Positions 2,148 to 20,596 are shown, counted from the stretch's first letter. The stretch is DNA of 64,000 nucleotides from Pseudomonadota bacterium (GCA_049325255.1 JBMOMW010000057.1:3804-67803), one strand, 5' to 3'. Numbers and translations are program-made. Notes: generated from the letters alone by a model not told the origin.

Positions 2148-3071
2148 CTATGTGCCCATGGCGCGCATGGCGATGGCGGCGGCGGCAGTGCGGTTTTCAA
2201 CGCCAAGCTTTGGATAAATCTGTTCAAGATGCTTGTTCACGGTTCGCGGGCTCATTTTAAGAATCTCGCCGATATCGCGGTTTGATTTGCCGCGTGCGGT
2301 CCATATAAGCACTTCGGCTTCACGCAGGGTCAGCGACAATTTGTCCTGCAACACCCGTTCCTCCTTGCACGCAACATAATTGCTGACGCGCAGGAGTATT
2401 TCATGGTGACCGATTTCGCCATCATAGGAGAACTGTAACTGGGTTAATCCATGGCAGGAGATCAAAACCGGCGCGTTGTTTGCCACATCTGCATTATTGC
2501 ATTGCTGCAACCAGGATCGCACCATACCGGGCAATATAAAATTTCTAGTCCTGAAATCGGGAAACATTGCGCACATGAGTGCATTGGCCTGCGGCGTGCA
2601 CCATAGAATGCGGCCGGAATGATCCACCGCCAGATAATAGCGCCCCGAAGCATCCAGCGCTTCATAGGCCCTATGTGCAAGGCGCGCATTGGCAAGATGC
2701 GTCCGGATACGGGCGATCAATTCATCCGGTACGATGGGCTTTGCGACATAGTCGACACCGCCCGCCTCAAAGCCCATGACGATATGCGCCGTATCCGTCA
2801 ATCCGGTCATGAAAATGACCGGCACATGGGCCGCCGCTATCAGGCGCTTCAGCCGCCGGGTCGTCTCAAAACCATCCATCCCAGGCATGACCGCATCCAT
2901 GAGAATGATATCCGGGGTTACCTTTCCAATCGCGGCCAGGGCCTGATCCCCTTCGAGGGCCGCAAGAACGGTCAGACCCGCATCTTCCAGCACATCGGCA
3001 AGCATTGCGACAGTTTCGGTTGAATCGTCCACAACGAGCACAGTGTCGCGCGCGGATCTAATGGGAATCAT
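2148..3071 (-). CDS. response regulator: N-terminal receiver, atypical ~130-aa middle domain, C-terminal LuxR/FixJ-type HTH
   Basis: REC motifs VLVVDDS and DIILMDAVMPGMDG. C-terminal LTLREAEVLIWTARGKSNRDIGEILKMSPRTVNKHLEQIY is a LuxR-type HTH. ATG at 3071 (MIPIRS) overlaps the upstream kinase stop by 14 nt. Confidence 0.8.
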   Translation of the reverse strand: MIPIRSARDTVLVVDDSTETVAMLADVLEDAGLTVLAALEGDQALAAIGKVTPDIILMDAVMPGMDGFETTRRLKRLIAAAHVPVIFMTGLTDTAHIVMGFEAGGVDYVAKPIVPDELIARIRTHLANARLAHRAYEALDASGRYYLAVDHSGRILWCTPQANALMCAMFPDFRTRNFILPGMVRSWLQQCNNADVANNAPVLISCHGLTQLQFSYDGEIGHHEILLRVSNYVACKEERVLQDKLSLTLREAEVLIWTARGKSNRDIGEILKMSPRTVNKHLEQIYPKLGVENRTAAAAIAMRAMGT

Positions 3072-6000
3072 GTGATTGCACCTTCTCGATTGCTGCAATG
3101 AACCGCTTGAAATCATATGTCGCGGCGATCTGACGCATCTGCGCTACGAATGGTCCGTTGCCGGGGGAGCTGTTTTCAATATCGTCTAGTTTGGCCTGAA
3201 TGCCACGCACATGGCCGATCTGGCCCAGATGCAGCAGCTCCTCAATATGAGGTTCAGATGGTGGTATGATAAGGCAGTTTTGCCCGTTCGCCTCTCCGCC
3301 CACGCTGTCCGATTCATATGTCCATTCCAGTTTCAGAAGCGCCTGGGTTTTATCCAGCAGCGAATTGATTTTCATTGGCTTGATCAGACAGTCATCATGC
3401 GCGCGATCCGGCGCAAGGGTCTGGTGTGTCTCGTTGATATTTGCGGAGAGAATAATGATTGCGGGCTTGTCGAGACCCATAGCCCGCAGTCTGCGCGCCA
3501 CCTCCCAACCGTCCATGCCAGGCATCAACACGTCCAGCAGGATCAGGTCAGGATCGCATTCCTGCGCCAGCGTAATGCAGGCAGGGCCATCCGGCGCATG
3601 CAATACTGTAAATCCAAGCGGCGCGAGCGTCTCGTGGATAAGGTCACGATGGACAGGGTTATCATCTGCGGCAATCACCGTCCTGTGAGGCCCGTGATAC
3701 CCGGTGATGCGTTTTTCCCGCGCGATGGCGGCGCGCGGCCGGATGACTTCCGATAACATCAGCCTGACACGGAAGATGCTGCCTTTGCCCACTATGCTGG
3801 TCACGCTGATCTCGCCGCCCATGGTTTCGGTCAGCACCCGCGCAATGGTAAGGCCAAGGCCGGTTCCAGCGGGAACCTTGATTTCCTCGGGCCCGTGCAC
3901 GCGCTGGAAGGGTTCGAAAATCCGGTCAATATCCTGCGCACGGATGCCAATGCCGGTATCCTCGATTTCAAATACCGCAACCTGGTTGCGGTAAGTCACG
4001 CGCAGCGCGACATGGCCGGCGCCTGTAAACTTGATGGCGTTTGACAGCAGGTTGATCAGAATTTGACGCAGCCGGTTTTCATCCGTATGGACCACCACCG
4101 GTATCTGGTCCGCCACTTCATAGTGGAACGCAATACCTTTAGCGGTTGTCTGTAAACGGAACATATCGACAAGCTGATCCAGAAATTCAATGATACGCAC
4201 TTCTTCGTGGTTGAGTTGAAAACGTCCCGCCTCGATCTTGGAAATATCGAGCAGGCCGTCAATCAGCACCGAAAGATGCTCGGCACTGCGCCGCACGACC
4301 TTGATAGCGTCCACACGCCGCGCCGGAATGGCTTTGTCGCGTTCAAGCAGTTGGGCGTAACCCAGAATCGCATTGAGCGGCGTGCGAAGTTCGTGACTAA
4401 GGCCCACGACATACCGGCTTTTAGCTTCATTCGCCGCCTCGGCCACTTCTTTCGCCCGCTGCAATTTGGCGTCCGTGATCTTGTGCGCCTCGATCTCCTC
4501 AAACAGAAGATTATTCTGACGCAGCGACTCCTCTTCCGCCACATGACGGCTTTCCTTCGCCAGCACGTACAACCAGACGGCGACACAATTAATCAAAGAC
4601 ATGACCAGGAACACGGCCCCCAGAATTGACTGGAACAGCGCCGTGTCCGCATCCGCATCAACCGTCGCCTGCAGATAGACCAGCATCAGTCCGGCGCCCA
4701 GCACGAGCGTGACCATGAAAAACACGCGCAGATAATTGCCCACCCGCGAATTGAGCGGCTTCCTGATCCATTGCGGCAGCGCCATTTCCAAGCCGCTCAA
4801 TAGCTGGCCGCCATGGAGCGCGTCCTGTTTGCATACATCATGACAGCGGGCGTCCAGCGAACAGCACAGGGAACATATCGGCCCCGAATAAGCGGGACAC
4901 ATCGCCATATCTTCCGGCTCGAACTTATGCTCACAGATGCAGCACTTGATGGACGCTTTACCGCGCCAGGCAAGATGCGGTCCGCGCGCAATGTAAAACC
5001 GCCCCCGGGTTAACACTGCAATGACCGGTGATGACACAAAGGCCACGCCAAGTGCTACATAGGAAGCCAGCGCCTGGGACACATCTCCAAACAGATTGAG
5101 GTGGGCGGCAAAACCCGCAGCGACCGCCAATATCATCGCGCCGACGCCAACAGGATTGATGTCATAGAGATGCGCGCGTTTGAATTCGATAAAAGGCGGG
5201 CTAAGGCCCATCGGCTTATTGACAACCAGATCGGCGACAAGCGCGCCTATCCAGGCGATGGCGACAATCGAATACAGCCCGAGTATTTTCTCCAGCGCCC
5301 GGAAAATGCCAATTTCCATCAGCACCAGGGCAATCGCCACATTGAACACCAGCCACACAACCCGGCCGGGATGGGTATGGGTCAGCCGCGAAAAGAAATT
5401 CGACCAGGCCAGCGATCCCGCATAGGCATTGGTCACATTGATCTTGATCTGCGACAGGACAACAAAGATGCCGGTAAAGCCGAGCGCCAGTTCAGGCGAA
5501 GAGAACACATATTCAAATGCGATCAGGTACATTTGCGTCGGTTCCGCCGCGCGTTCCAGTGGCACAAAGTTCTGGACCGCGAGGGCGGCAAGAAACGATC
5601 CGCCCAGTAATTTGAGCACCCCGGGCACGATCCAGCCCGGACCTGCGGCGACCAAACCCGTCCACCAGCCCAGGCGCTGTTTGCGGTTACGTGGCAGAAA
5701 ACGTAAAAAGTCAACCTGTTCGCCGATCTGAGCGATCAGCGCAAAGGCGACAGATGAAGCTGCGCCAAACAGGACTATGTTGAAATTTCCGTCCGTGTTC
5801 TGAGAGCCAGAAAAATTTGTCCAGTCATCAAATTTGCCCGCGCCATGCGCCGGAATGAAAACAAAGGGCAGCAGTTGCAGCAATATCCAGAGCGGCTGTG
5901 TCCATAATTGCAGCCGGCTGATGAAGGTGATGCCATGCGTCACCAGCGGGATTATCACAATGGCGCTGATAATATATCCAAGCGCCAGCGGCACGCCAAA

Positions 6001-6567
6001 GCACAGCTCCAGAGCCAGCGACATGATCGCCGCCTCAATGGCGAAGAAAAGAAACGTGAAGGACGCATATATCAGCGATGTTATGGTGGATCCGATATAG
6101 CCAAATCCCGCGCCGCGCGTCAGCAGGTCGATATCGACACCATATTTGGCCGCGTAAAAAGCAACCGGTAATCCAGTGGCAAAGATAATCACGCTTACCA
6201 CAAGAATGGCGGCGGCGGCATTGGTGAACCCATAATTGAGCGTAATGGCGCCGCCAATAGCTTCCAGCGCAAGAAACGAGATCGCGCCCAGGGCTGCATT
6301 GGTGACACGGAAGTTTGACCATTTTCGCGCATTTTTCGCGGTAAAACGCAGCGCGTAATCTTCCAGGGTCTGGTTGGCGACCCATTTATTATAATTACGT
6401 CGTACACGGATGATTTTCAGCCGCGCCATCATGGCCAATAGCCTTTGTTCAAACCACGCTCCGCCATCCCAGCGATAATGACAGCTTAACGCTATCATTG
6501 TGCGACGCACAAGATTCAATTTGCATCGCAACATAAATCTGGGCGCGCGCACCGGATAAACCGCCAT
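3058..6567 (-). CDS. hybrid sensor histidine kinase with N-terminal NCS1 (purine-cytosine/hydantoin permease)-like 12-TM domain, Cys-rich segment, HisKA, HATPase, one receiver and a possible C-terminal Hpt-like tail
   Basis: 1169 aa. N-terminal 550 aa are polytopic membrane sequence with NCS1-like motifs (FRVTNAALGAISF..., GFGYIGS). Then CCICEHKF...CPAYSGPICSLCCSLDARCHDVC, two TM helices and a coiled coil. LSHELRTPLN is the HisKA H-box, followed by the G-boxes DTGIGI and GTGLGL, and REC with LILLDVLMPGMDG. Likely true start is MMARLK at about 6432. Confidence 0.85.
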   Translation of the reverse strand: MAVYPVRAPRFMLRCKLNLVRRTMIALSCHYRWDGGAWFEQRLLAMMARLKIIRVRRNYNKWVANQTLEDYALRFTAKNARKWSNFRVTNAALGAISFLALEAIGGAITLNYGFTNAAAAILVVSVIIFATGLPVAFYAAKYGVDIDLLTRGAGFGYIGSTITSLIYASFTFLFFAIEAAIMSLALELCFGVPLALGYIISAIVIIPLVTHGITFISRLQLWTQPLWILLQLLPFVFIPAHGAGKFDDWTNFSGSQNTDGNFNIVLFGAASSVAFALIAQIGEQVDFLRFLPRNRKQRLGWWTGLVAAGPGWIVPGVLKLLGGSFLAALAVQNFVPLERAAEPTQMYLIAFEYVFSSPELALGFTGIFVVLSQIKINVTNAYAGSLAWSNFFSRLTHTHPGRVVWLVFNVAIALVLMEIGIFRALEKILGLYSIVAIAWIGALVADLVVNKPMGLSPPFIEFKRAHLYDINPVGVGAMILAVAAGFAAHLNLFGDVSQALASYVALGVAFVSSPVIAVLTRGRFYIARGPHLAWRGKASIKCCICEHKFEPEDMAMCPAYSGPICSLCCSLDARCHDVCKQDALHGGQLLSGLEMALPQWIRKPLNSRVGNYLRVFFMVTLVLGAGLMLVYLQATVDADADTALFQSILGAVFLVMSLINCVAVWLYVLAKESRHVAEEESLRQNNLLFEEIEAHKITDAKLQRAKEVAEAANEAKSRYVVGLSHELRTPLNAILGYAQLLERDKAIPARRVDAIKVVRRSAEHLSVLIDGLLDISKIEAGRFQLNHEEVRIIEFLDQLVDMFRLQTTAKGIAFHYEVADQIPVVVHTDENRLRQILINLLSNAIKFTGAGHVALRVTYRNQVAVFEIEDTGIGIRAQDIDRIFEPFQRVHGPEEIKVPAGTGLGLTIARVLTETMGGEISVTSIVGKGSIFRVRLMLSEVIRPRAAIAREKRITGYHGPHRTVIAADDNPVHRDLIHETLAPLGFTVLHAPDGPACITLAQECDPDLILLDVLMPGMDGWEVARRLRAMGLDKPAIIILSANINETHQTLAPDRAHDDCLIKPMKINSLLDKTQALLKLEWTYESDSVGGEANGQNCLIIPPSEPHIEELLHLGQIGHVRGIQAKLDDIENSSPGNGPFVAQMRQIAATYDFKRFIAAIEKVQSHDSH

Positions 6568-6822
6568 CCCCTATATTTTGCAGACGAGCCATAAGGATGG
6601 CCAATATAAATCAGCCTCAAAAAAATGGCACTCTGTGGCCATAAAATAAGCAGCCGATGACGAAAATATAAGCAGCGGTCTCTGCCTCTCTCCATGGCGC
6701 GGCGCGATTGTTTTTTGCATATACGTCAAACGACGTATTGCTGCGTTGCAATATGTCTGGCGATTGTTGACGCCATGGATCGCGATAGTGCGACTCCGCC
6801 GTTGGATTTTAGGAGGCGTCAA
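6568..6822. promoter_or_regulatory. divergent promoter region between the sensor kinase and urtA, with inverted repeats that are candidate operators
   Basis: Contains ATACGTC-aaac-GACGTAT (perfect 7-bp arms) and ATTGC-N6-GCAAT inverted repeats, plus an AGGAGG RBS 6 nt upstream of the urtA ATG. Confidence 0.4.
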
Positions 6823-8094
6823 ATGTCATCTGATAACAAGAAACCCGGGGGCTGGGATTTTCAATCACCCACACGCCGGCAATTGCTAATCGGCACGGCG
6901 GCGCTTGGCGCCGCAGCAATGCTGCCGCGTGGCGCCTGGGCGCAGGCATTCCCGACCAGTGCGGTCAATACAACCGGACTTGCGGTCACCGATACCGAGG
7001 TGACAGTTGGCATTCTGCATTCCGTCACCGGGACCATGGCGATTTCCGAAACCGGTTCGGTGCAGGCCGAGAAACTGGCCATTGCACAAATAAATGCAGC
7101 AGGCGGCGTGCTGGGCCGCCAGATCAAATTCATCCAGGAGGACGGCGCCAGCGACTGGCCGACCTTTGCTGAAAAGGCCAAAAAGCTACTTGTTAAAGAC
7201 AAATGCGCTTCGGTAATGGGCTGCTGGACATCGGCGTCGCGCAAGGCGGTGCTGCCGGTGTTCGAACAATATAATGGCATGCTGTATTACCCGACCTTCT
7301 ATGAAGGTCTGGAGCAATCCAAGAACGTTATCTATACCGGTCAGGAAGCAACACAGCAGATCATCGCCGGGCTGGACTGGGTGGTGAAGGAAAAGGGCGC
7401 CAAGAGTTTCTATCTGCTGGGATCGGACTATATCTGGCCGCGCACATCGAACAAGATCGCGCGCAAGCACATTGAGAACTTTCTCAAGCTGAAAGTGGTG
7501 GGCGAGGAATATTTCCCGCTTGGGCATACGCAGTTCAACTCCGTTATCAATAAATTGAAACTGACCAAGCCAGACGTGATTTACGCAATCATTGTGGGCG
7601 GCTCGAACGTGGCGTTCTACAAACAGCTTAAAGCCGCAGGCATTGATTTGACCAAGCAGACACTGGTCACAATCTCGGTGACCGAAGATGAAATTCTGGG
7701 TATTGGCGGCGAAAATATCGTTGGCGCCTATGCCTGCATGAAATATTTCCAGTCGCTCGACAATCCCAACAACAAGACCTTTGTCTCCGAATTCAAAAAG
7801 ATGTGGGGCGCAGAAACGGTTATTGGCGACGTCACGCAGGCCGCCTATCTCGGTCCCTGGCTGTGGAAACTGACGGTGGAGAAAGCAGGCTCCTTTGATG
7901 TCGATAAGGTGGCGGCGGCATCACCGGGCATTGAATTCAAGGGCGCGCCCGAGGGTTATGTGCGCATCCACGAAAACCACCATTTATGGAGCAAGACCCG
8001 CGTCGGCCTCGCGCGCCTCGATGGCCAGTATGACGTTGTGTATGAAACGGCTGACCTGATGGAGCCAAATCCCTTTCCCAAGGGCTATCAATGA
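6823..8094 (+). CDS. urtA: urea/short-chain amide ABC transporter substrate-binding protein (UrtA/FmdD), Tat signal
   Basis: Twin-arginine motif RRQLLIGTAALGAAA. Strong similarity to the UrtA/amide-urea binding protein family. Operon context with urtBCDE and fmdA. AGGAGG RBS at 6811-6816. Confidence 0.85.
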   Translation: MSSDNKKPGGWDFQSPTRRQLLIGTAALGAAAMLPRGAWAQAFPTSAVNTTGLAVTDTEVTVGILHSVTGTMAISETGSVQAEKLAIAQINAAGGVLGRQIKFIQEDGASDWPTFAEKAKKLLVKDKCASVMGCWTSASRKAVLPVFEQYNGMLYYPTFYEGLEQSKNVIYTGQEATQQIIAGLDWVVKEKGAKSFYLLGSDYIWPRTSNKIARKHIENFLKLKVVGEEYFPLGHTQFNSVINKLKLTKPDVIYAIIVGGSNVAFYKQLKAAGIDLTKQTLVTISVTEDEILGIGGENIVGAYACMKYFQSLDNPNNKTFVSEFKKMWGAETVIGDVTQAAYLGPWLWKLTVEKAGSFDVDKVAAASPGIEFKGAPEGYVRIHENHHLWSKTRVGLARLDGQYDVVYETADLMEPNPFPKGYQ

Positions 8095-8192
8095 TCTTTC
8101 AGTCATGTCCGGGCGGCGCGCCGCCCGGACGGTAAGGTTCAGCAGTCAATTTGGCAGCCCGCCATATACGGCCACCTGTAGGGAGTAACACG

Positions 8193-9119
8193 ATGTTCAT
8201 GGAGTATTCGCTTGGTGATCTCGGCTCGATTTTTGCGATGCAGGCATTTGCGGGACTGATACTTTTCTCCGTGTACCTCTTAATGGCGCTGGGTCTTGCA
8301 ATCATCTTTGGCCAGATGAACGTCATCAACATGGCGCATGGCGAGTTCATGATCCTCGGCGCCTATATGACATATTTGTGCTCGCACCTGTTTCAGAGCT
8401 ATGCGCCCGGCCTGTATGACGGTTACTTCTTTGTGGCCATGACCGTGGCCTTCATTGTTTCAGGCGGGATGGGGCTGATTGTGGAGTGGCTGCTGATCCG
8501 GCGCCTCTATTCCCGCCCGCTGGATACGCTGCTGGCGACCTGGGGCCTCAGCCTGATCATGCAGCAGACTTTCCGTTCCGTCTTTGGCGCGCGCGAAGTG
8601 GGTGTTGAATTGCCGGCCTGGATGATGGGCTCGCTGCCGGTGACCGGTTCCATCGAAGTGCAGATCAATGGACTGTTCGTCATGGCGCTGACGCTTTTCA
8701 TAACCGGGCTTGTGGCGCTATTGATGCTCCGTTCCCGCTGGGGCCTGCAGGTGCGCGCGGTGCTGTCAAACCGCGTCATGGCGGGCGCTGCCGGCGTCAA
8801 CACACAGCGCGTTGACCGGCTTACCTTCGGGCTTGGCTGCGGCATAGCCGGGATCGCGGGTTCGGCTTTCACCATGATCGGCTCCACCGGCCCGACGGCT
8901 GGTCAGCTTTACATTGTTGACACGTTCCTCGTCGTTGTCTTTGGCGGCGCGCAGAGCCTGCTGGGAACCGTATTTTCGGCACTCTCCATCTCACAGTCGC
9001 AGTCCGTCATGGAGTTCTTCATGTCGGGCTCGATGGCCAAGGTGATCACGCTGCTGTTTGTCATCGGCCTTTTGATGCTGCGCCCGCAGGGCCTGTTTGT
9101 CCTCAAGATTAGAAAGTAA
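8193..9119 (+). CDS. urtB: urea ABC transporter permease UrtB
   Basis: Branched-chain-amino-acid-type permease fold (LivH-like), multiple TM segments, operon position. Confidence 0.85.
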   Translation: MFMEYSLGDLGSIFAMQAFAGLILFSVYLLMALGLAIIFGQMNVINMAHGEFMILGAYMTYLCSHLFQSYAPGLYDGYFFVAMTVAFIVSGGMGLIVEWLLIRRLYSRPLDTLLATWGLSLIMQQTFRSVFGAREVGVELPAWMMGSLPVTGSIEVQINGLFVMALTLFITGLVALLMLRSRWGLQVRAVLSNRVMAGAAGVNTQRVDRLTFGLGCGIAGIAGSAFTMIGSTGPTAGQLYIVDTFLVVVFGGAQSLLGTVFSALSISQSQSVMEFFMSGSMAKVITLLFVIGLLMLRPQGLFVLKIRK

Positions 9120-9125
9120 CGCATC

Positions 9126-10244
9126 ATGTATGACGTCCTTAGAAGAAATCGAAATCTGGAACTGCTGGGCATCATCCTTATCGGCATTCTGATCCTGGTG
9201 GTGCTGCCGCTGGCGCTGGATATTTTCCGGCTTAACCTTGTCGGAAAATATCTCACTTACGCCTTTGTTGCGGTGGGGCTTGTGCTGTGCTGGGGTCATA
9301 CGGCCATCCTGAGCCTTGGGCAGGGGGTGTTCTTCGGCCTTGGCGGCTATTGCATGGCCATGTATCTGAAACTTGAAGCCTCCACGCCCGAGGCCACCAA
9401 AATTCAGTCGACGCCGGGTATTCCCGACTTCATGGACTGGAATCAGTTAACCGAACTTCCTCATTTCTGGGTGCCGTTCCAGTCTTTGCCGCTGGCACTG
9501 ATCGCCGTGTTTGCGGTGCCTGTGCTGATCGCCTTTATCCTTGGCTATGCGCTGTTCAAGCGCCGTGTGGGCGGCGTTTACTTTGCCATCATCACCCAGG
9601 CGCTGGCGGCGGTGCTGACCATTCTGATCATTGGGCGGCAGGATTTTACCGGGGGCATCAATGGCATCACGGACTTGCGCACGCTTCTGGGCTGGGACAT
9701 CCGCACGGACAGCGCCAAATATATTCTCTATTTCGTCTGCTGCTTTGCACTGCTTGGCAGCATACTGCTGGCGCGTCTGGTGATCGCCAGCAAGCTGGGG
9801 CGCATCCTGATCGCAGTGCGCGACAAGGAGGAACGGGTGCGTTTCTCCGGCTATGACCCCGCTTTATTCAAGGTTTTCGTATTCTGTTTCGCGGCTGCTG
9901 TCGCGGCGCTTGGCGGCGCGATGTTTACCTTGCAGGTCGGGTTCATGTCGCCGTCTTTCGTTGGCATCGTGCCCTCCATCGAGATGGTGATTTTCTGCGC
10001 CGTGGGCGGGCGTCACTCGATGGTCGGCGCAGTCACCGGCACCCTGTTGGTGAATTGGGGCAAGACGGTTTTTTCAGAAAGCTTCCCCGAACTGTGGCTG
10101 TTCGCCATGGGGGGGCTGTTTATCGCCGTCGTTCTGGCGTTTCCGCGCGGGCTGGCGGGGCTTTTCACCGATCAGTTGCTGCCGCTGATCAACCGCAAGC
10201 TAAGCGGCAAGCACACCGGCGTCACGCCCGTGCTGGCCGAGTAA
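9126..10244 (+). CDS. urtC: urea ABC transporter permease UrtC
   Basis: LivM-like permease, polytopic, follows urtB after a 6-nt gap. Confidence 0.85.
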   Translation: MYDVLRRNRNLELLGIILIGILILVVLPLALDIFRLNLVGKYLTYAFVAVGLVLCWGHTAILSLGQGVFFGLGGYCMAMYLKLEASTPEATKIQSTPGIPDFMDWNQLTELPHFWVPFQSLPLALIAVFAVPVLIAFILGYALFKRRVGGVYFAIITQALAAVLTILIIGRQDFTGGINGITDLRTLLGWDIRTDSAKYILYFVCCFALLGSILLARLVIASKLGRILIAVRDKEERVRFSGYDPALFKVFVFCFAAAVAALGGAMFTLQVGFMSPSFVGIVPSIEMVIFCAVGGRHSMVGAVTGTLLVNWGKTVFSESFPELWLFAMGGLFIAVVLAFPRGLAGLFTDQLLPLINRKLSGKHTGVTPVLAE

Positions 10245-10254
10245 GGAGAGCAAG

Positions 10255-11001
10255 ATGGCCAACAGAACTGATTTCCTTTTGGCGCTGGAAAATGTCAGCG
10301 TCTCCTTCGATGGCTTCAAGGCGGTCAACGAACTTAACCTCTATATCGACAAGGGCGAGCTGCGGGTCATTATCGGCCCCAATGGCGCGGGCAAAACAAC
10401 GGTGCTTGATCTTATCTGCGGCCGTACCAGGCCAAGCAGCGGTTCCATCAAATTCAACGACAGGGAAATCACCAAACTCAATGAGCAGGATATTGTGCAG
10501 TTGGGTATTGGACGCAAGTTCCAGACGCCTTCGATCTATGAAGACCTGACTGTATTCGAAAATCTCGAAATATCCTTTCCGCGCGGCCGCAATGTTTTCG
10601 GCGCGCTGTTCTGGAAACGCACCAGCGAGATTACCGATCAGGTGCACGCGATCGCCCGCATGATTTTTCTGGAAAAACTTCTGGATAGCCCCGCCGAAAT
10701 GCTGAGCCACGGCCAGAAGCAGTGGCTTGAGATTGGCATGCTGCTGATCCAGGACCCGGAATTGCTGATGCTGGATGAACCGGTCGCGGGCATGAGCGTG
10801 GCGGAGCGCGCAAAGACTGCTGAGTTGCTGAATGAGGTCATCAAGAACCGCTCGGTGATTGTAATCGAACACGACATGAAATTTGTCGAGAGCATTGCCC
10901 ACCGCGTCACTGTGCTGCACCAGGGCAAGGTGCTGGCCGAAGGCAGAATGGAAGCGATACAGGAAAACCCGGAAGTCAAGGAAGTCTATCTCGGCCACTA
11001 A
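10255..11001 (+). CDS. urtD: urea ABC transporter ATP-binding protein UrtD
   Basis: Walker A GPNGAGKTT, ABC signature LSHGQKQWLEIG, Walker B LLMLDEP. Confidence 0.85.
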   Translation: MANRTDFLLALENVSVSFDGFKAVNELNLYIDKGELRVIIGPNGAGKTTVLDLICGRTRPSSGSIKFNDREITKLNEQDIVQLGIGRKFQTPSIYEDLTVFENLEISFPRGRNVFGALFWKRTSEITDQVHAIARMIFLEKLLDSPAEMLSHGQKQWLEIGMLLIQDPELLMLDEPVAGMSVAERAKTAELLNEVIKNRSVIVIEHDMKFVESIAHRVTVLHQGKVLAEGRMEAIQENPEVKEVYLGH

Positions 11002-11012
11002 AGGAAACGGTC

Positions 11013-11702
11013 ATGCTTGAAGTGCGAAACCTTAATGTTGCCTACGGCCAGAGCCAGGTGCTGCATGGCCTTGATTTCACGGTCCAGCCGGGGGAAATTG
11101 TTGCGGTGGTTGGCCGTAACGGCATGGGAAAAACCACCTTGATGAAATCCCTGATCGGCGTCGTCCCGGTAAAAACCGGCGAGATCATCGCCAATGGCGC
11201 CAATGTCACCGCCATGCCCAGCCACGCGCGGGTCGCTAATGGTTTGGCCTATGTGCCGCAGGGACGCCAGATTTTTGGCGCCATGACGGTGGAGGAAAAT
11301 ATCAGGACAGGTCTTTCCGCCACCGGCAGGCGCGTCATACCGGACGAAATCTACAGCCTGTTTCCCATCCTGTGGGAATTCAACAAACGGCGCGGCGGCA
11401 ATCTGTCCGGCGGTCAGCAGCAACAGCTTGCCATCGCGCGCGCGCTGGCAAGCGACCCGAAAGTTCTGCTGCTTGATGAACCCACCGAGGGCATACAGCC
11501 TTCGATCATCAAGGATCTCGCCAAGGTGCTCAAGGAAATCCGCGATATGCGCAATCTGTGCATCATCGTCAGCGAGCAGGTGCTCAGCTTTGTGCTTAGC
11601 GTCGCGGACCGCATTCTGGTTCTGGAAAATGGGCGCATCGTACATAGCGATGTGCGTGAAGGTGTCGATGAGGCGGCCATCGCCCGCTTCCTCGCTGTGT
11701 AA
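11013..11702 (+). CDS. urtE: urea ABC transporter ATP-binding protein UrtE
   Basis: Walker A GRNGMGKTT, signature LSGGQQQQLAIARAL, Walker B LLLDEP. Confidence 0.85.
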   Translation: MLEVRNLNVAYGQSQVLHGLDFTVQPGEIVAVVGRNGMGKTTLMKSLIGVVPVKTGEIIANGANVTAMPSHARVANGLAYVPQGRQIFGAMTVEENIRTGLSATGRRVIPDEIYSLFPILWEFNKRRGGNLSGGQQQQLAIARALASDPKVLLLDEPTEGIQPSIIKDLAKVLKEIRDMRNLCIIVSEQVLSFVLSVADRILVLENGRIVHSDVREGVDEAAIARFLAV

Positions 11703-11740: not shown

Positions 11741-12970
11741 ATGCCTGAGACCCTGATCAAAGTTGATCTGGCAGATTCCCCCTACAACAACGACATGATC
11801 CATAACCGCTGGCATCCGGATATTCCAATGGTGACATGGGTGAAGCGGGGCGCCGATTTCATTATCGAAACCTATGACTGGACCGGCGGTTTCATCAAGA
11901 ATAATGATAGCGCCGATGATGTCCGCGATATTGATCTGTCGATCGTGCACTTCCTGTCTGGCCCGATTGGCGTTGAAGGAGCTGAACCGGGCGATCTTCT
12001 GGTCGTCGATCTGCTGGATGTCGGCGCCAAGCCGGATAGCCTGTGGGGCTTCAACGGTTTCTTCTCAAAAAAGAATGGCGGCGGCTTTCTGACCGACCAT
12101 TTTCCGTTCGCGCAAAAATCCATCTGGGATATTTCGGGCCTCTATACCCATTCGCGGCATGTGCCCGGCGTTAAATTTGCCGGGCTGATCCATCCGGGCC
12201 TGATTGGCTGTCTGCCGGATCAAAAGCTGCTGGAAATCTGGAACAAGCGCGAAGTGGATTTCATCGCCACCCAGCCCGAGCGGGTGCCGCCGCTGGCCAA
12301 CCCGCCGTTCGGTCCCACCGCCCATGCGGGCAGGGCCAAAGACGCCGCCAAGGCCAAGGTGGCGGCGGAAGGCGCGCGCACAGTGCCGCCGCGCGAGCAT
12401 GGCGGCAATTGCGACATCAAGGATCTGTCGCGCGGCTCAAAGATTTATTTCCCGGTTTATGTCAAGGGCGGCGGACTTTCGATGGGCGATCTGCATTTCA
12501 GTCAGGGGGATGGCGAAATCACTTTCTGCGGCGCCATTGAAATGGCGGGCTGGCTGCATATCAAGGTGGATGTCATCAAGGACGGCATGGCGAAGTACGG
12601 TGTTAAAAACCCGATGTTCAAGCCTTCGCCGATTACGCCGAACTATAATAACTATCTCATCTTCGAGGGTATCTCGGTTGATGAATGGGGCAAGCAGCAT
12701 TATCTCGACGTGCATGTCGCCTACCGGCAGGCCTGCCTGAATGCCATCGAATATATGACCAAGTTTGGTTACTCCAGGGCCCAGGCCTACGCCATTCTTG
12801 GCACCGCGCCGGTGCAGGGGCATATTTCCGGCGTCGTGGATATTCCCAATGCCTGCGCGACGCTGTGGCTGCCAACGGATATTTTTGAATTCGACATCAT
12901 GCCGAACGCCGATGGCCCGGTAAAATATATCAAGGGCGGGGTGGATATTCCAATGTCGCCGGATAAATAA
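11741..12970 (+). CDS. fmdA: formamidase (acetamidase/formamidase family)
   Basis: N-terminus KVDLADSPYNNDMIHNRWHPDIPMVTWVKRGADFIIETYDWTGGFIKNND closely matches characterised FmdA formamidases. 409 aa. Confidence 0.9.
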   Translation: MPETLIKVDLADSPYNNDMIHNRWHPDIPMVTWVKRGADFIIETYDWTGGFIKNNDSADDVRDIDLSIVHFLSGPIGVEGAEPGDLLVVDLLDVGAKPDSLWGFNGFFSKKNGGGFLTDHFPFAQKSIWDISGLYTHSRHVPGVKFAGLIHPGLIGCLPDQKLLEIWNKREVDFIATQPERVPPLANPPFGPTAHAGRAKDAAKAKVAAEGARTVPPREHGGNCDIKDLSRGSKIYFPVYVKGGGLSMGDLHFSQGDGEITFCGAIEMAGWLHIKVDVIKDGMAKYGVKNPMFKPSPITPNYNNYLIFEGISVDEWGKQHYLDVHVAYRQACLNAIEYMTKFGYSRAQAYAILGTAPVQGHISGVVDIPNACATLWLPTDIFEFDIMPNADGPVKYIKGGVDIPMSPDK

Positions 12971-13041
12971 TCTTTTGCGGGTACGGGGCGGCGCCATGCT
13001 GCCCCGTGCGTTCCTCCATCAACAAAACCGGGACGGCAATC

Positions 13042-13377
13042 ATGCCAGTTTACGATTATCTCTGCGACGTCTGCGGCCCGTTTACGGCAATGCGCCCCAT
13101 GGCGGAATATGAAACGCCGCAAACGTGCCCGGAATGCAGCGCGGATGCGCCCCGGTCACTCTCGGTTCCGCATTTCGCCAATATGGCGACGGAACGCCGC
13201 CATGCTTTTTCTACGAACGAGCGCAGCGCCCATGCGCCGCAATCCTCCGCCGAATACAAATCACGGCATGGCGCAAACTGTTCGTGTTGCACGGGGAAGG
13301 GCTCACGCCTTACCGCGCGCGCCAAAGATGGATCAAAGAGTTTCCCGGCCAGCCGCCCCTGGATGATCTCGCACTAG
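13042..13377 (+). CDS. fmdB: FmdB-family zinc-ribbon putative regulatory protein
   Basis: MPVYDYLCDVCGPF...CPECS has the CxxC...CxxC arrangement of FmdB proteins. Sits immediately downstream of fmdA. Confidence 0.7.
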   Translation: MPVYDYLCDVCGPFTAMRPMAEYETPQTCPECSADAPRSLSVPHFANMATERRHAFSTNERSAHAPQSSAEYKSRHGANCSCCTGKGSRLTARAKDGSKSFPASRPWMISH

Positions 13378-17632: not shown

Positions 17633-18340
17633 TCAAAACCAGAAGCGGATTCCCGCAACCAGCGAGGGGACATTGATATCCTCGCCCTCATCGCGCGCGA
17701 TGTCTGCGGTTTGCCCCAGTTTGCGCTCCCAATTGACGCCGATATAGGGGGCGAATTCGCGCCGTATTTCATATCGCAGGCGCAACCCCAACTCGATGTC
17801 ACTGACGCCCGAACCGATGCCGCGCCCGCTTGTGTCCTGCGCCGCCAGATTAACCTCGAACGAGGGTTGCAGGACCAGACGCTGGGTCAGCAGCAGTTCA
17901 TATTCCGCCTCGAACCGGGCCGACAGTTCGCCCTCATTGCTGAGAAACGCCGCCGCATCGATTTCGAAATATTGCGGCGCCAGGCCCTGAAGACCGATCA
18001 CCGCGAAACCGCGTTCCTGATCCGGTTCGGGGTCGTAGCGAAGCCCCGCCTGCACATCGAAAAAATCTGTCACAAGATGCGAATAGAGCAGCTGCACTTC
18101 GGCTTTTTCCGTTTTGCCTCCGGCAAGTTTTTCGCCCTCGGTTTTCAGCCACGCCTTGTTATAGTCGCCGCCAGCCCAGCCCTGCGCCTCCCATTTCAGG
18201 CTGTTCCTGCCAGCATGGTTCCGGTACTCAAACTGGTCCGCCTGGAAGAAGCTGTAGTTCGGCTCATGTTCTTCCATCGCGGAAGCCTGACTTGTCAGCA
18301 TACAGAGTAATAGTGCAAGTCCGCTGATGCGCCTATTCAT
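17633..18340 (-). CDS. pcoB: copper resistance outer-membrane protein B (CopB/PcoB family)
   Basis: Signal peptide MNRRISGLALLLCMLTSQASA. CopB-family beta-barrel sequence. Overlaps the 3' end of the multicopper oxidase gene. Confidence 0.75.
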   Translation of the reverse strand: MNRRISGLALLLCMLTSQASAMEEHEPNYSFFQADQFEYRNHAGRNSLKWEAQGWAGGDYNKAWLKTEGEKLAGGKTEKAEVQLLYSHLVTDFFDVQAGLRYDPEPDQERGFAVIGLQGLAPQYFEIDAAAFLSNEGELSARFEAEYELLLTQRLVLQPSFEVNLAAQDTSGRGIGSGVSDIELGLRLRYEIRREFAPYIGVNWERKLGQTADIARDEGEDINVPSLVAGIRFWF

Positions 18341-20030
18341 GACCCGTCTCCCTATTGGCGGCAACCGGGCCTTCGACAATCACCTTGCGCATCATGCCCG
18401 TCGCCATGTGATAGAGCAGATGGCAATGAAACGCCCATTCGCCCATCGCGTCGGCGGGTACGTCCACGCTCAGGGATTGCCCGGGCGGCACATTGACCAC
18501 ATGTTTCAGCGGATTGAACTTTTTCTTGCCGGTGTCGAGTTGCATCCACATGCCATGCAGATGCATGGGGTGGCTCATCATGGTCTGATTGACAAATGTG
18601 AAGCGCACCCGCTCGCCATATTTCAGGCGGATGGGTTCGGCATCGGAAAATTTCACGCCGTCGATGGACCAGAAATAGCGCTCCATATTTCCGGTCAGCT
18701 TCATCTCGATCTCGCGGTCCGGTGCGCGATATTCCGCATAGGGTTTCATGGCTTTCAGATCGCCATACACCAGAACCTTGCCGCCCGGCTTTGCGGCTAT
18801 GGGCGCGAGGCCGCTCTGCATGCCAGCTTTTTCCGTCCCCCCCATATCCATGCCAGGCATGGCGCTGTGATCCATTCCCGCCATCCCGGCCATGGCGCCA
18901 TGATCCATTGCGGGCGCTGTATCCGCGCCCGGCGCTGCCCCATGATCCATGCCGCCCATATCCATGCCCATATCCGCCATGGTCAGTTGCGGGCGCGGGC
19001 GCAGCGCCGGAATTTCCCCGCTCATGCCTTGCGCAGGCGCCAGCGTTGCGCGCGCATAGCCGGTGCGGTCGAGAGATTCAGCGAAGATCGTAAAAGCTTT
19101 TTCTTCTTCAGGCTGAACAATCACGTCATAGGTTTCAGCAACCGCGATGCGCAGTTCATCCACCGGAACCGGCTGCACATTATTGCCATCGGCCTGCACC
19201 ACGGTCATTTTCAGGCCTGGAATGCGCACATCGAAATAGCTCATGCTGGAGCCGTTGATCAGGCGCAAGCGCACCCGCTCGCCCGGTTTGAACAGGCCGG
19301 TCCAGTTTTGCGCGGCGCTTTTACCGTTGATCAGGAATGTATAACCGCTGACATCGGAAATATCCGTGGGGGTCATGCGCATCTGCCCCCACGCGGCGCG
19401 ATCCTTCACGGTTGCCGCCAATCCCTTTTCCGAAACATCCCTGAAAAAGGTTCCAACGGTGCGTTGCGCATAATTATAATAATCGCTGTTTTTCTTCAGA
19501 TGGCCAAGGATGGCTTCGGGCTTTTCATCCGTCCAGTCCGACAGCATCACCACATAGTCGCGATCATATTTGTACGGCTCGCGCTTTGCAGGCGTGATGA
19601 TTATCGGGCCATACATGCCTTCCTGTTCCTGCAGGCCGGAATGGCTGTGATACCAGTAGGTGCCAGCCTGTTTGATCCTGAAGTTATAGGTGAACGTCTC
19701 GCCCGGTTTGATGCCGGGAAAGCTGATACCCGGCACGCCGTCTTGCGTGAACGGCAGCAAAATCCCGTGCCAGTGAAGGGACGTATCCGTGTCCATCTTG
19801 TTGGTCACATTGATGGTCACCTCCTCGCCCTCCGTAAATCGCAGGGTTGGTCCGGGTATCTGCCCGTTGATCGCCATGGTCAGGCGCTCCCCCCTGTCAT
19901 AGCCCGCGCGCATCTCATCAATCGTCAGGTTATAGGTTCCAGCGAACGCGCCGGAACCGGTGAGCAGTGTAAAGAGTGCTGCAAGGCCCACAAAAGCTAT
20001 GTAAAAATTGCGCATGATCATCCCCTTCAT
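18333..20030 (-). CDS. pcoA: copper resistance multicopper oxidase (CopA/PcoA)
   Basis: Copper-binding motifs HWHG, HSH, HPMHLHG, HCHLLYH. Met-rich insert MADMGMDMGGMDHG... 565 aa. Confidence 0.9.
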   Translation of the reverse strand: MKGMIMRNFYIAFVGLAALFTLLTGSGAFAGTYNLTIDEMRAGYDRGERLTMAINGQIPGPTLRFTEGEEVTINVTNKMDTDTSLHWHGILLPFTQDGVPGISFPGIKPGETFTYNFRIKQAGTYWYHSHSGLQEQEGMYGPIIITPAKREPYKYDRDYVVMLSDWTDEKPEAILGHLKKNSDYYNYAQRTVGTFFRDVSEKGLAATVKDRAAWGQMRMTPTDISDVSGYTFLINGKSAAQNWTGLFKPGERVRLRLINGSSMSYFDVRIPGLKMTVVQADGNNVQPVPVDELRIAVAETYDVIVQPEEEKAFTIFAESLDRTGYARATLAPAQGMSGEIPALRPRPQLTMADMGMDMGGMDHGAAPGADTAPAMDHGAMAGMAGMDHSAMPGMDMGGTEKAGMQSGLAPIAAKPGGKVLVYGDLKAMKPYAEYRAPDREIEMKLTGNMERYFWSIDGVKFSDAEPIRLKYGERVRFTFVNQTMMSHPMHLHGMWMQLDTGKKKFNPLKHVVNVPPGQSLSVDVPADAMGEWAFHCHLLYHMATGMMRKVIVEGPVAANRETGHE

Positions 20031-20596
20031 CTGGCAAAATCGATACGGCCCAACATACCGGACTCATAGTGCCCCGGCATGTTGCAGGCGAATTCAATCT
20101 CCATGGCTTTGGTGAATTTCCATACCAGTTCTTTGCTCTCACCTGGCGCCAGCAGGACGGTGTTGGGATCATCATGGCGCATGGGCATATCCTTGCCCTT
20201 TTTGGCATGGCTCATGCCGCCCATATCCATTTTGGAATGGTCCATGTTCATCTTCTCCGGGTCGATGCCGGTTGGGGTGAGCATGCCCATCTCCATCATC
20301 TCCGCCATTTCCTTGCGGTGCTCCGTATGAGCGGCCAGGGTGTCGATGCTGAACTCGTGCAGAAATTCGCCGCTGTTCTTCAGAACGAAACGAACGGTTT
20401 CGCCCTGCTTCACCGATATAGCGTCCGGTTCATAGTAATTATCAGCCAAATTGACTTCGATGGTGCGGGTGGCGGACGCGGGCGCGCCAGGCGCGCCAAA
20501 TTCGTAACCGTGACCGGCGGCGGCGAGCGCCGGAGCGGCAAGGCCGGAGACAACGGCGCTGAGTGCTACAGCCAGGGGTAAAAAGACGGGATTCAT
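20027..20596 (-). CDS. cupredoxin-domain copper-binding protein, Met-rich
   Basis: Signal peptide. CNMPGHYESGM is a type-1 copper site-like motif. Met-rich stretch MAEMMEMGM...MNMDHSKMDMGGM. Confidence 0.75.
   Translation of the reverse strand: MNPVFLPLAVALSAVVSGLAAPALAAAGHGYEFGAPGAPASATRTIEVNLADNYYEPDAISVKQGETVRFVLKNSGEFLHEFSIDTLAAHTEHRKEMAEMMEMGMLTPTGIDPEKMNMDHSKMDMGGMSHAKKGKDMPMRHDDPNTVLLAPGESKELVWKFTKAMEIEFACNMPGHYESGMLGRIDFAR

Follow-up and report, generated by a model that had tools for sequence, protein, structure and literature searches.

We analysed a 64,000-nt stretch of DNA from a Pseudomonadota bacterium (GCA_049325255.1 JBMOMW010000057.1:3804-67803; hereafter the window, with positions counted from its first letter). 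On its minus strand lies a gene for a hybrid sensor histidine kinase with a transporter-like membrane domain, which overlaps a response regulator gene and is divergent from a urt-fmd operon for the import and cleavage of amides. The longest open reading frame (ORF) at the kinase locus, 3058..6567(-), has 1169 codons, and a preliminary description made from the sequence alone had taken all of it as the protein. The ORF exists, but homologue N-termini begin at 'M..Q.IVRVRRNYN', equivalent to Met46/47 of the ORF, and the first 45 codons (6433-6567) have a counterpart in no homologue. Therefore, we place the kinase gene at 3058..6432(-), encoding 1124 aa plus a stop, and all kinase residue numbers count from this corrected start. 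Gene callers that choose the longest ORF would mis-start not only the kinase but also urtA (ORF from 6694) and the regulator (ORF from 3116).

The kinase combines a large membrane portion with a conventional signalling core. Hydropathy and an AlphaFold2 (AF2) model placed 12 transmembrane (TM) segments at residues 47-473, within an NCS1/CodB-like LeuT-fold domain (residues ~26-478; 4999..6357). A Cys-rich segment follows (residues ~495-536; 4825..4950), and then an extra hairpin, TM13-TM14 (residues ~564-621 by hydropathy, AF2 helices 563-591 and 597-649; 4570..4743). TM14 is prolonged as a long helix that reaches into the DHp domain. This order of about 12 helices, Cys-rich segment and two further helices is as first described, and Pfam likewise bore out a core of HisKA, HATPase and one receiver in the C-terminal half. 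The HisKA/DHp domain spans residues 671-736 (4225..4422; PF00512, E 4.5e-16) and carries the phospho-accepting His680 (codon 4395..4393), a His kept in 94% of aligned orthologues. It is followed by the HATPase_c catalytic domain (residues 783-893; 3754..4086; PF02518, E 5.2e-27) and a fused receiver with Asp967 (residues 919-1028; 3349..3678; PF00072, E 1.8e-19).

The C-terminal tail (3061..3348) had been thought possibly Hpt-like, an idea that did not survive. Pfam found no Hpt domain in the kinase or its tail, and no match of any kind in the tail, even at E<=10; the orthologue alignment has no conserved His after the HisKA region; and the tail is not conserved across the family, being gapped in most orthologues and missing from many that are ~1055 aa long. 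No HPt gene was present among the neighbouring genes scanned either.

The membrane domain had been called NCS1 permease-like, with a match to PF02133 expected. The match did not materialise: Pfam gave none within the first 670 kinase residues, PF02133 included, even at E<=10, an NCBIfam scan of the membrane domain found nothing, and phmmer together with a family-profile hmmsearch against PDB sequences returned chance matches only and no transporter. PF02133 was touched by one of 61 diverse relatives, at 17.9 bits against a cutoff of 23.5, and a precomputed match exists for 4 of the 120 kinase-less relatives listed. At the level of fold and profile, in contrast, the likeness to NCS1 held. The AF2 model (residues 1-650, built with 110 homologues; predicted local distance difference test (pLDDT) 80.6, predicted TM-score (pTM) 0.82) was searched against the PDB with Foldseek. 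The best match was CodB (7QOA; E 4e-10, TM-score 0.78 on the target, 21% identity), followed by three Mhp1 entries (E 1e-9 to 2e-7); all other LeuT-fold families gave E >= 4e-6, and SSS structures ranked below NCS1.

We also aligned a 23-sequence family profile with Escherichia coli CodB using hhalign. The alignment scored 44.4 (P 4.5e-5, probability 69%) and was colinear over 410 columns and all 12 helices. As controls, AllW, an NCS1 member of the other branch, scored 24.0, AdiC 22.7 and PutP (SSS) 19.1, the last inside the 11-27 range of 20 shuffled CodB sequences. The CodB alignment pairs LLTRGAGFGYIGS (as LLTRGxGFGxxGS) with LLARFSFGVKGS, VDFLRF with ADFVRF and ADLVVNK with ADYLMNR, and a TM8 pattern, N..N/YA..L..W/F.N, is common to the family and CodB. 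Automatic annotation at JGI names many homologues 'histidine kinase/purine-cytosine permease-like protein'. The membrane domain hence shares with NCS1 a 12-TM LeuT-type fold and is closer to it than to other LeuT-fold families, but lacks a match to the Pfam family model at the gathering score. Judged by the modelled structure, we regard it as a borderline member, either a divergent member or a sister of the NCS1 CodB branch that lies beyond the current Pfam model.

The helices that form the binding sites of LeuT-fold proteins are TM1, TM3, TM6 and TM8, and it is in these four that family conservation peaks. Conserved buried charged residues are E57, E133, E238, D241, R244 and K330. To map the pocket, the hhalign alignment, with its probability of 69%, was combined with the residue roles reported for CodB, in which Gly29 provides a Na2-site carbonyl, Phe33 lines the pocket, Gln105 binds cytosine, and Trp108 and Phe204 stack the substrate (PMC9379551). 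Gly29 corresponds to Gly49 in the kinase, Phe33 to an invariant Phe53, Gln105 to Thr126, and Trp108 to Phe129, so that the aromatic is kept; Phe204 corresponds to Leu232, so that the aromatic is lost. Other aligned pairs (CodB to kinase) are D213 to D241, R216 to R244, T279 to T334 and N280 to N335. The two substrate-sandwiching aromatics, a TM3 Trp and a TM6 Phe or Trp, are conserved throughout NCS1 (PMC9379551), and in the kinase, at this alignment probability, one of them is replaced by an aliphatic residue; Phe129 and Leu232 are each at least 90% conserved in the family. The Na2-site ligands of CodB include the Thr278 and Thr279 hydroxyls. These fall on V333/T334 if a 3-residue gap in TM8 is accepted, as by hhalign, and on K330/I331 if TM8 is left ungapped. 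The TM8 alignment is ambiguous, yet an invariant Lys330 occupies a Na2-site position either way (N275 gapped, T278 ungapped). On this moderate-confidence alignment we infer that the conservation pattern is the one expected of a working ligand site, with a pocket that a planar heterocycle may fit less well.

In the Cys-rich segment the cysteines are spaced as C-x2-C-x11-C-x7-C-x2-CC-x5-C-x3-C. Among orthologues C497, C500 and C512 are invariant, and C520, C523, C524, C530 and C534 are at least 90% conserved. The segment is retained in most kinase-less homologues, and some relatives (P0195, P0260) have a degenerate version of it or none. In NCS1 proteins both termini are as a rule cytoplasmic; assuming the same here, the segment is cytoplasmic because it is placed after TM12. 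AF2 predicts short beta-hairpins within it. Scanned alone against Pfam at E<=10 it had no match, and its resemblance to B-box and C1 zinc fingers was at chance level and non-significant. It is probably a metal-binding, structural site that couples TM12 to the TM13-14 hairpin, and it may also have a role in sensing.

The response regulator gene (2148..3071, minus strand) encodes 307 aa rather than 322, in line with orthologues of 303-320 aa, and consists of a receiver (REC) and a LuxR/GerE helix-turn-helix (HTH), both recognised by Pfam, with an insert of ~90 aa between them. The gene starts with an ATG at 3071 and so shares 14 nt with the end of the kinase gene, whose stop codon is TAG (3058-3060); in orthologous loci, too, the two genes commonly overlap by a few to 14 nt, in agreement with the translational coupling to a LuxR-type regulator that had been proposed. 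The receiver is intact, with D15, D16, D59, T89 and K111 invariant. With its acidic receiver pocket, Thr and Lys and its C-terminal GerE/LuxR HTH, the protein belongs to the NarL/FixJ family, and its AF2 model (pLDDT 83.6) had StyR, FixJ and LiaR as top Foldseek matches. The conserved insert, between receiver and HTH (residues 146-233; about 2373-2636), is predicted by AF2 as beta-beta-alpha-alpha-alpha-beta-beta-beta, a PAS-like order. It had no Pfam match when scanned alone at E<=10 and is contained in no solved REC-HTH regulator among the top Foldseek matches; as these are all two-domain REC-HTH proteins, Foldseek is uninformative on the insert, which could serve as a second signal input.

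Divergent from the kinase, on the plus strand, lies the urtABCDE-fmdAB operon, whose assignment in the preliminary description was confirmed by TIGR03407, NF045496 and Pfam matches. It begins with a urtA-like gene for a periplasmic binding protein (6824..8094; TIGR03407, 539 bits against a cutoff of 492.75). ATG 6824 is its most likely start rather than 6694, in view of a ribosome-binding site (AGGAGG) and a twin-arginine signal. This signal, SPTRRQLLIGTAALGAAAMLP (6824-6925), is of twin-arginine type and scored 18.0 bits with the Pfam TAT_signal model, below the cutoff of 22.7; it suggests that UrtA is exported in folded form. The permeases urtB and urtC and the ATPases urtD and urtE follow (8151..11702; Pfam BPD_transp_2 twice and ABC_tran twice), then the formamidase gene fmdA (11741..12970; NF045496 equivalog, 763 bits against a cutoff of 500; PF03069) and fmdB, for a zinc-ribbon protein with an RPWMISH domain (13006..13377; TIGR02605, NF053663). 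The locus thus encodes a complete Urt-type transporter, comprising a UrtA-type protein, two permeases and two ATPases, together with an FmdA equivalog. FmdB matches the CxxC_CxxC_SSSS zinc-ribbon model as well as the NCBIfam 'RPWMISH domain' model (139.8 bits against a cutoff of 120), and fmdB is co-conserved with fmdA in nearly all loci whose contig reaches so far.

This gene order is conserved well beyond the window. The N-terminal domain has relatives in at least 3913 clusters at 90% identity in a large protein collection, and in 1803 clusters at 50% identity with E<=1e-3, 483 of them with E<=1e-30. Close relatives are encoded in 521 GTDB species genomes, the nearest (93% identity) in uncultured Alphaproteobacteria. 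For synteny we retrieved 80 loci from alpha-, beta- and gammaproteobacteria with kinases of 55-93% identity, including Xanthobacteraceae, Bradyrhizobium relatives, Zavarzinia, Skermanella, Hyphomicrobium, Burkholderiales, Rhodocyclaceae and Alcanivorax. In every one of the 80, as far as the contig reaches, the regulator follows the kinase and urtA-E and then fmdA-fmdB are divergent from it. The same architecture beside urt and fmd genes, for which a search in other genomes had been suggested, was found throughout the sample, and chance adjacency of kinase and operon was rejected on this synteny. A more distant fused orthologue (39% identity) keeps the Urt-like genes and a 300-aa REC-GerE regulator, and its locus has a CN_hydrolase amidase of the AmiE/AmiF family in place of FmdA.

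The membrane module also occurs without the kinase. Such homologues, of 540-575 aa, are found in Actinobacteria and Alicyclobacillus, and all six contexts inspected contain a GntR/UTRA regulator, a PF01425 amidase and a small ORF of 64-77 aa, often with isochorismatase-family or CN_hydrolase genes in addition. These six loci (L082-L087) are from Amycolatopsis, Alicyclobacillus, Phaeacidiphilus, Nocardia, Actinopolymorpha and a soil metagenome. Their amidase and small ORF recall AtzE/AtzG with NCBIfam scores far below cutoff. An AtzE/AtzG/BiuH identity was rejected, since AtzE-family and BiuH/RutB models were among the top NCBIfam matches but every match scored well below cutoff; for this reason we assign no specific substrate to the enzymes of the kinase-less operons. 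Kinase-less proteins of ~550 aa (P0299, P0304, P0308, P0316, P0329 and others) are named 'histidine kinase' in NCBI and UniRef, a name apparently carried over from fused relatives, as the kinase domain is absent.

In further relatives, the same module is fused to PAS, GAF, GGDEF and EAL outputs. For example, P0140 (L090:8001-12665) joins the CodB-like and Cys-rich module to PAS-GAF-GGDEF-EAL, and the relatives' alignment (A4) contained four GGDEF and three EAL matches. The module may hence also feed cyclic di-GMP signalling. Coupling to different outputs is a hallmark of a sensor domain, and the association of the module with three non-homologous amidase families is the main argument for amide recognition.

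The intergenic region upstream of urtA has diverged among the loci except for one sharply conserved block, the palindrome ATACGTC-N4-GACGTAT (6721..6738), centred ~95 bp upstream of the urtA ATG. The 64-kb window has a single copy of its core, TACGTC-N4-GACGTA; 58 of 81 intergenic regions contain this core, and only 63 copies are present in the 1.53 Mb of fetched loci. Three Zavarzinia loci have a variant, ATACGCA-N4-TGCGTAT, at the same position. An inverted repeat of such size suits a dimeric HTH of the NarL/FixJ type, and we consider the palindrome a likely operator, on sequence grounds, of the overlapping regulator. The kinase-proximal half of the intergenic region contains a perfect 7-1-7 palindrome, TTGTGCG-A-CGCACAA (6498-6512), and another palindrome, TTGCATCGCAA (6519-6531). 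Both are conserved in the closest loci (L001-L004), and more distant loci have a different conserved block, TTTTGCAGCGCACACTGC, in this half. These may be sites for another regulator, perhaps one of nitrogen control. A sigma-54 promoter at TGGCAC (about 6627) was considered and rejected by eye, as its -12 element is mis-spaced.

Together, the locus probably encodes an amide-responsive, transporter-fold two-component system that governs the urt-fmd genes, a reading based on sequence comparison and structural models. The analysis shows the architecture, the predicted fold, the gene order and the palindrome; the ligand, the route of phosphotransfer, the direction of regulation and any transport activity are inferred, in a mechanism that would run as follows. 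A small amide (formamide, acetamide or a urea-like compound) would bind in the canonical TM1/TM3/TM6/TM8 pocket and shift the outward/inward equilibrium of the LeuT fold, and TM12, the Cys-rich domain and TM13-14 would relay this movement to the DHp and kinase domains. His680 would then be phosphorylated and pass its phosphate directly to Asp59 of the overlapping FixJ/NarL-type regulator; as there is no HPt, such direct transfer is proposed, and the fused receiver (Asp967) would more probably drain off phosphate or modulate the system. The phosphorylated regulator dimer would bind ATACGTC-N4-GACGTAT upstream of urtA and thereby activate the urt-like ABC importer and the fmdAB formamidase genes. 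In this way the kinase would probably switch on the adjoining genes for amide import and cleavage when small amides are available. The interpretation in the preliminary description is thus supported, apart from its start codon, its Hpt-like tail and the PF02133 match that it expected. N-heterocycles and amides had both been proposed there as the signal; three unrelated amidase families and the lost stacking aromatic together favour small amides.

Several observations weigh against this proposal. The NCS1 assignment rests on the predicted structure and an hhalign probability of 69%, because Pfam and HMMER matches are lacking, with PF02133 below threshold on the kinase and on 60 of the 61 diverse relatives. 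Hybrid kinases that relay phosphate to a separate regulator do not usually lack an HPt, as this one does, and the extra domain of that regulator could carry an input of its own. The strict palindrome is absent from 23 of the 81 intergenic regions, mostly beta- and gammaproteobacterial. The amide ligand is suggested by gene neighbourhood only, and urea rather than formamide could be the signal, because UrtA passes the NCBIfam urea-transporter model.

Alternatively, the protein could be a true transceptor, in which the NCS1-like domain is an active, probably proton-coupled amide permease, signalling reports flux, and the kinase-less relatives are ancestral transporters. In favour of this, a permease is what one would expect in the catabolic amidase operons that contain the kinase-less homologues; none of the 12 TMs or helix-break regions is disrupted, and all show high conservation; and the invariant Lys330 aligns with a position of the CodB Na2 site (N275 or T278), which recalls Lys196 of CbrA (PMC13022988). 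However, the mapping to the Na2 site is ambiguous, a second uptake route is not needed beside the high-affinity ABC importer of the operon, and the comparable fusion Ks-Amt5 binds its ligand without efficient translocation (PMC8534201). We therefore consider active transport possible but rather unlikely.

A signal other than an amide appears improbable. Here, the Cys8 domain would be a sensor of redox conditions or of a metal (zinc or an Fe-S cluster), or else nitrogen status would be sensed by the regulator insert, and the permease-like domain would be mainly an anchor or scaffold. The eight Cys, at least 90% conserved in orthologues and kept in most kinase-less relatives, would fit this, as would the conserved ~90-aa regulator insert with its beta2-alpha3-beta3 order reminiscent of PAS, and the further conserved intergenic palindromes hint at additional regulators. 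A mere anchor, however, would not be expected to show its strongest conservation in the pocket helices TM1/3/6/8, the Cys pattern is more like a structural zinc site and is degenerate or absent in P0195 and P0260, and the three associated amidase families argue for substrate-specific control. Least probable of all, and by our estimate very improbable, is that the kinase monitors UrtBCDE, or UrtA with its ligand bound, through protein-protein contact within the membrane, its own pocket being vestigial. Known transporter/kinase pairs do work by such protein-protein contact, and the kinase is strictly co-inherited with urt genes in the 80 loci and the distant orthologue. Yet it has no sizeable periplasmic domain on which a binding protein could dock, its pocket residues are highly conserved, and the sensor module also occurs with GGDEF/EAL outputs and, kinase-less, in operons in which urt genes were not observed.

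Extending the amide-responsive proposal to the whole family, we suggest, tentatively and with more doubt than confidence, that the CodB-like domain and its Cys8 tail form a membrane sensor module that has gone unrecognised although in wide use, and whose ligands would be small acyclic amides (formamide, acetamide or urea-like compounds). This module would derive from a new amide-permease branch of NCS1 and be wired to kinases, to diguanylate cyclases and phosphodiesterases, and to catabolic operons. A second input, of metal or redox type, might enter through the Cys8 domain, or this domain might serve as a mechanical coupler.

The kinase, the regulator and the urt-fmd genes seem, on balance, to make up a self-contained amide-utilisation module of ~11 kb. 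Genes beyond the module look unrelated and include an LpxR-like gene, a Crp/Fnr-family regulator, a DUF6629 gene, an AraC-type regulator, a methyltransferase and copper-resistance genes. The latter, copB and a copA-like multicopper oxidase gene, lie on the minus strand (17633-20030), and a 580-aa ORF on the opposite strand (18327-20069), which has no Pfam match, is probably a shadow ORF.

A transporter fold at the head of a histidine kinase has precedents. In CbrA/CbrB and CrbS/CrbR (MxtR/ErdR) of Pseudomonas and Vibrio, a complete LeuT-fold transporter domain is likewise covalently N-terminal to the DHp and catalytic domains of a kinase that controls nutrient utilisation. CbrA has Lys196 in its Na2 site and proton-motive-force-driven transport (PMC13022988), and here the invariant Lys330 aligns to a Na2-site position, in an ambiguous stretch of the alignment. 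The differences are several. The transporter family is CodB-type NCS1-like here and SLC5 in CbrA/CrbS; the CbrA/CrbS type has an SLC5/SSS domain followed by STAC, and Pfam found neither SSF nor STAC in our kinase; and in place of STAC or PAS it has the Cys8 domain and the extra TM hairpin. It is also a hybrid with a fused receiver, and its regulon is apparently local (one palindrome in the 64-kb window). CbrB is an NtrC-type regulator, whereas the partner here is of the FixJ/NarL type with an inserted domain. In Ks-Amt5 of 'Candidatus Kuenenia stuttgartiensis' the transporter fold of a nitrogen compound has similarly been re-used as a kinase sensor; this fusion of an Amt domain with a histidine kinase binds its ligand without efficient transport (PMC5764959, PMC8534201), which is the mechanism that we favour for the proposed amide-responsive kinase. 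Ks-Amt5 differs in having an Amt trimer rather than a LeuT fold, and its ligand class and genomic context are unrelated too. The system described here works like CbrA and Ks-Amt5, with a transporter fold as receptor, but belongs to neither family.

Other comparisons concern the fold and the ligand. CodB (7QOA) and Mhp1 (2JLN) are the best structural matches, and CodB shares motifs in an alignment that is colinear over the 12 TMs; relative to CodB, at about 20% identity, the kinase has signalling domains and a Cys-rich tail in addition. In Aminobacter, metformin is carried by the NCS1 transporter MetT, evidence that ligands of this scaffold may be small, acyclic and nitrogen-rich rather than heterocyclic; transport by MetT is proton-dependent, and MetT differs in being a stand-alone transporter without signalling domains (PMC13390362). 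Dedicated regulators of short-chain amide catabolism beside amidase and transporter genes are known from the aliphatic amidase operon of Pseudomonas aeruginosa (AmiC/AmiR) and, putatively, from Methylophilus (FmdB). AmiC is a cytoplasmic amide-binding protein and AmiR an antiterminator, an entirely different mechanism from a membrane kinase with a DNA-binding regulator. FmdB is mentioned as a putative regulator of the Methylophilus formamidase (PMC13209695), and the urt-fmd-amiE cluster of P. veronii has been explicitly described as lacking amiC/amiR.

Reviews and a 2026 preprint on the CbrA structure describe fusions of a transporter with a kinase as rare, and the examples that they give are the SLC5 type (CbrA) and Ks-Amt5. 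The NCS1 literature to 2026 gives N-heterocycles and metformin as substrates and no signalling members, and published descriptions of urt-fmd(-amiE) clusters mention no sensor. The preliminary description knew of no characterised NCS1-fused hybrid kinase; in agreement, we found no characterised member in the full-text literature, a coverage that leaves out most subscription journals. If the proposal is correct, the NCS1 type, which at least 521 species genomes encode, would be a third and independent instance of a receptor made from a transporter fold, and the substrates of NCS1 would be extended from N-heterocycles towards simple amides. Should the module prove to be a general amide sensor, no amide 'transceptor' and no signalling receptor based on NCS1 would precede it. 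The read-out would be obvious, as the regulated operon adjoins the kinase and has a candidate operator, and a compact amide-inducible switch of this kind could find use in formamide-based biotechnology. For the bacteria themselves, the kinase and its regulator would supply the missing regulator of the widespread urt-fmd(-amiE) amide-scavenging clusters.

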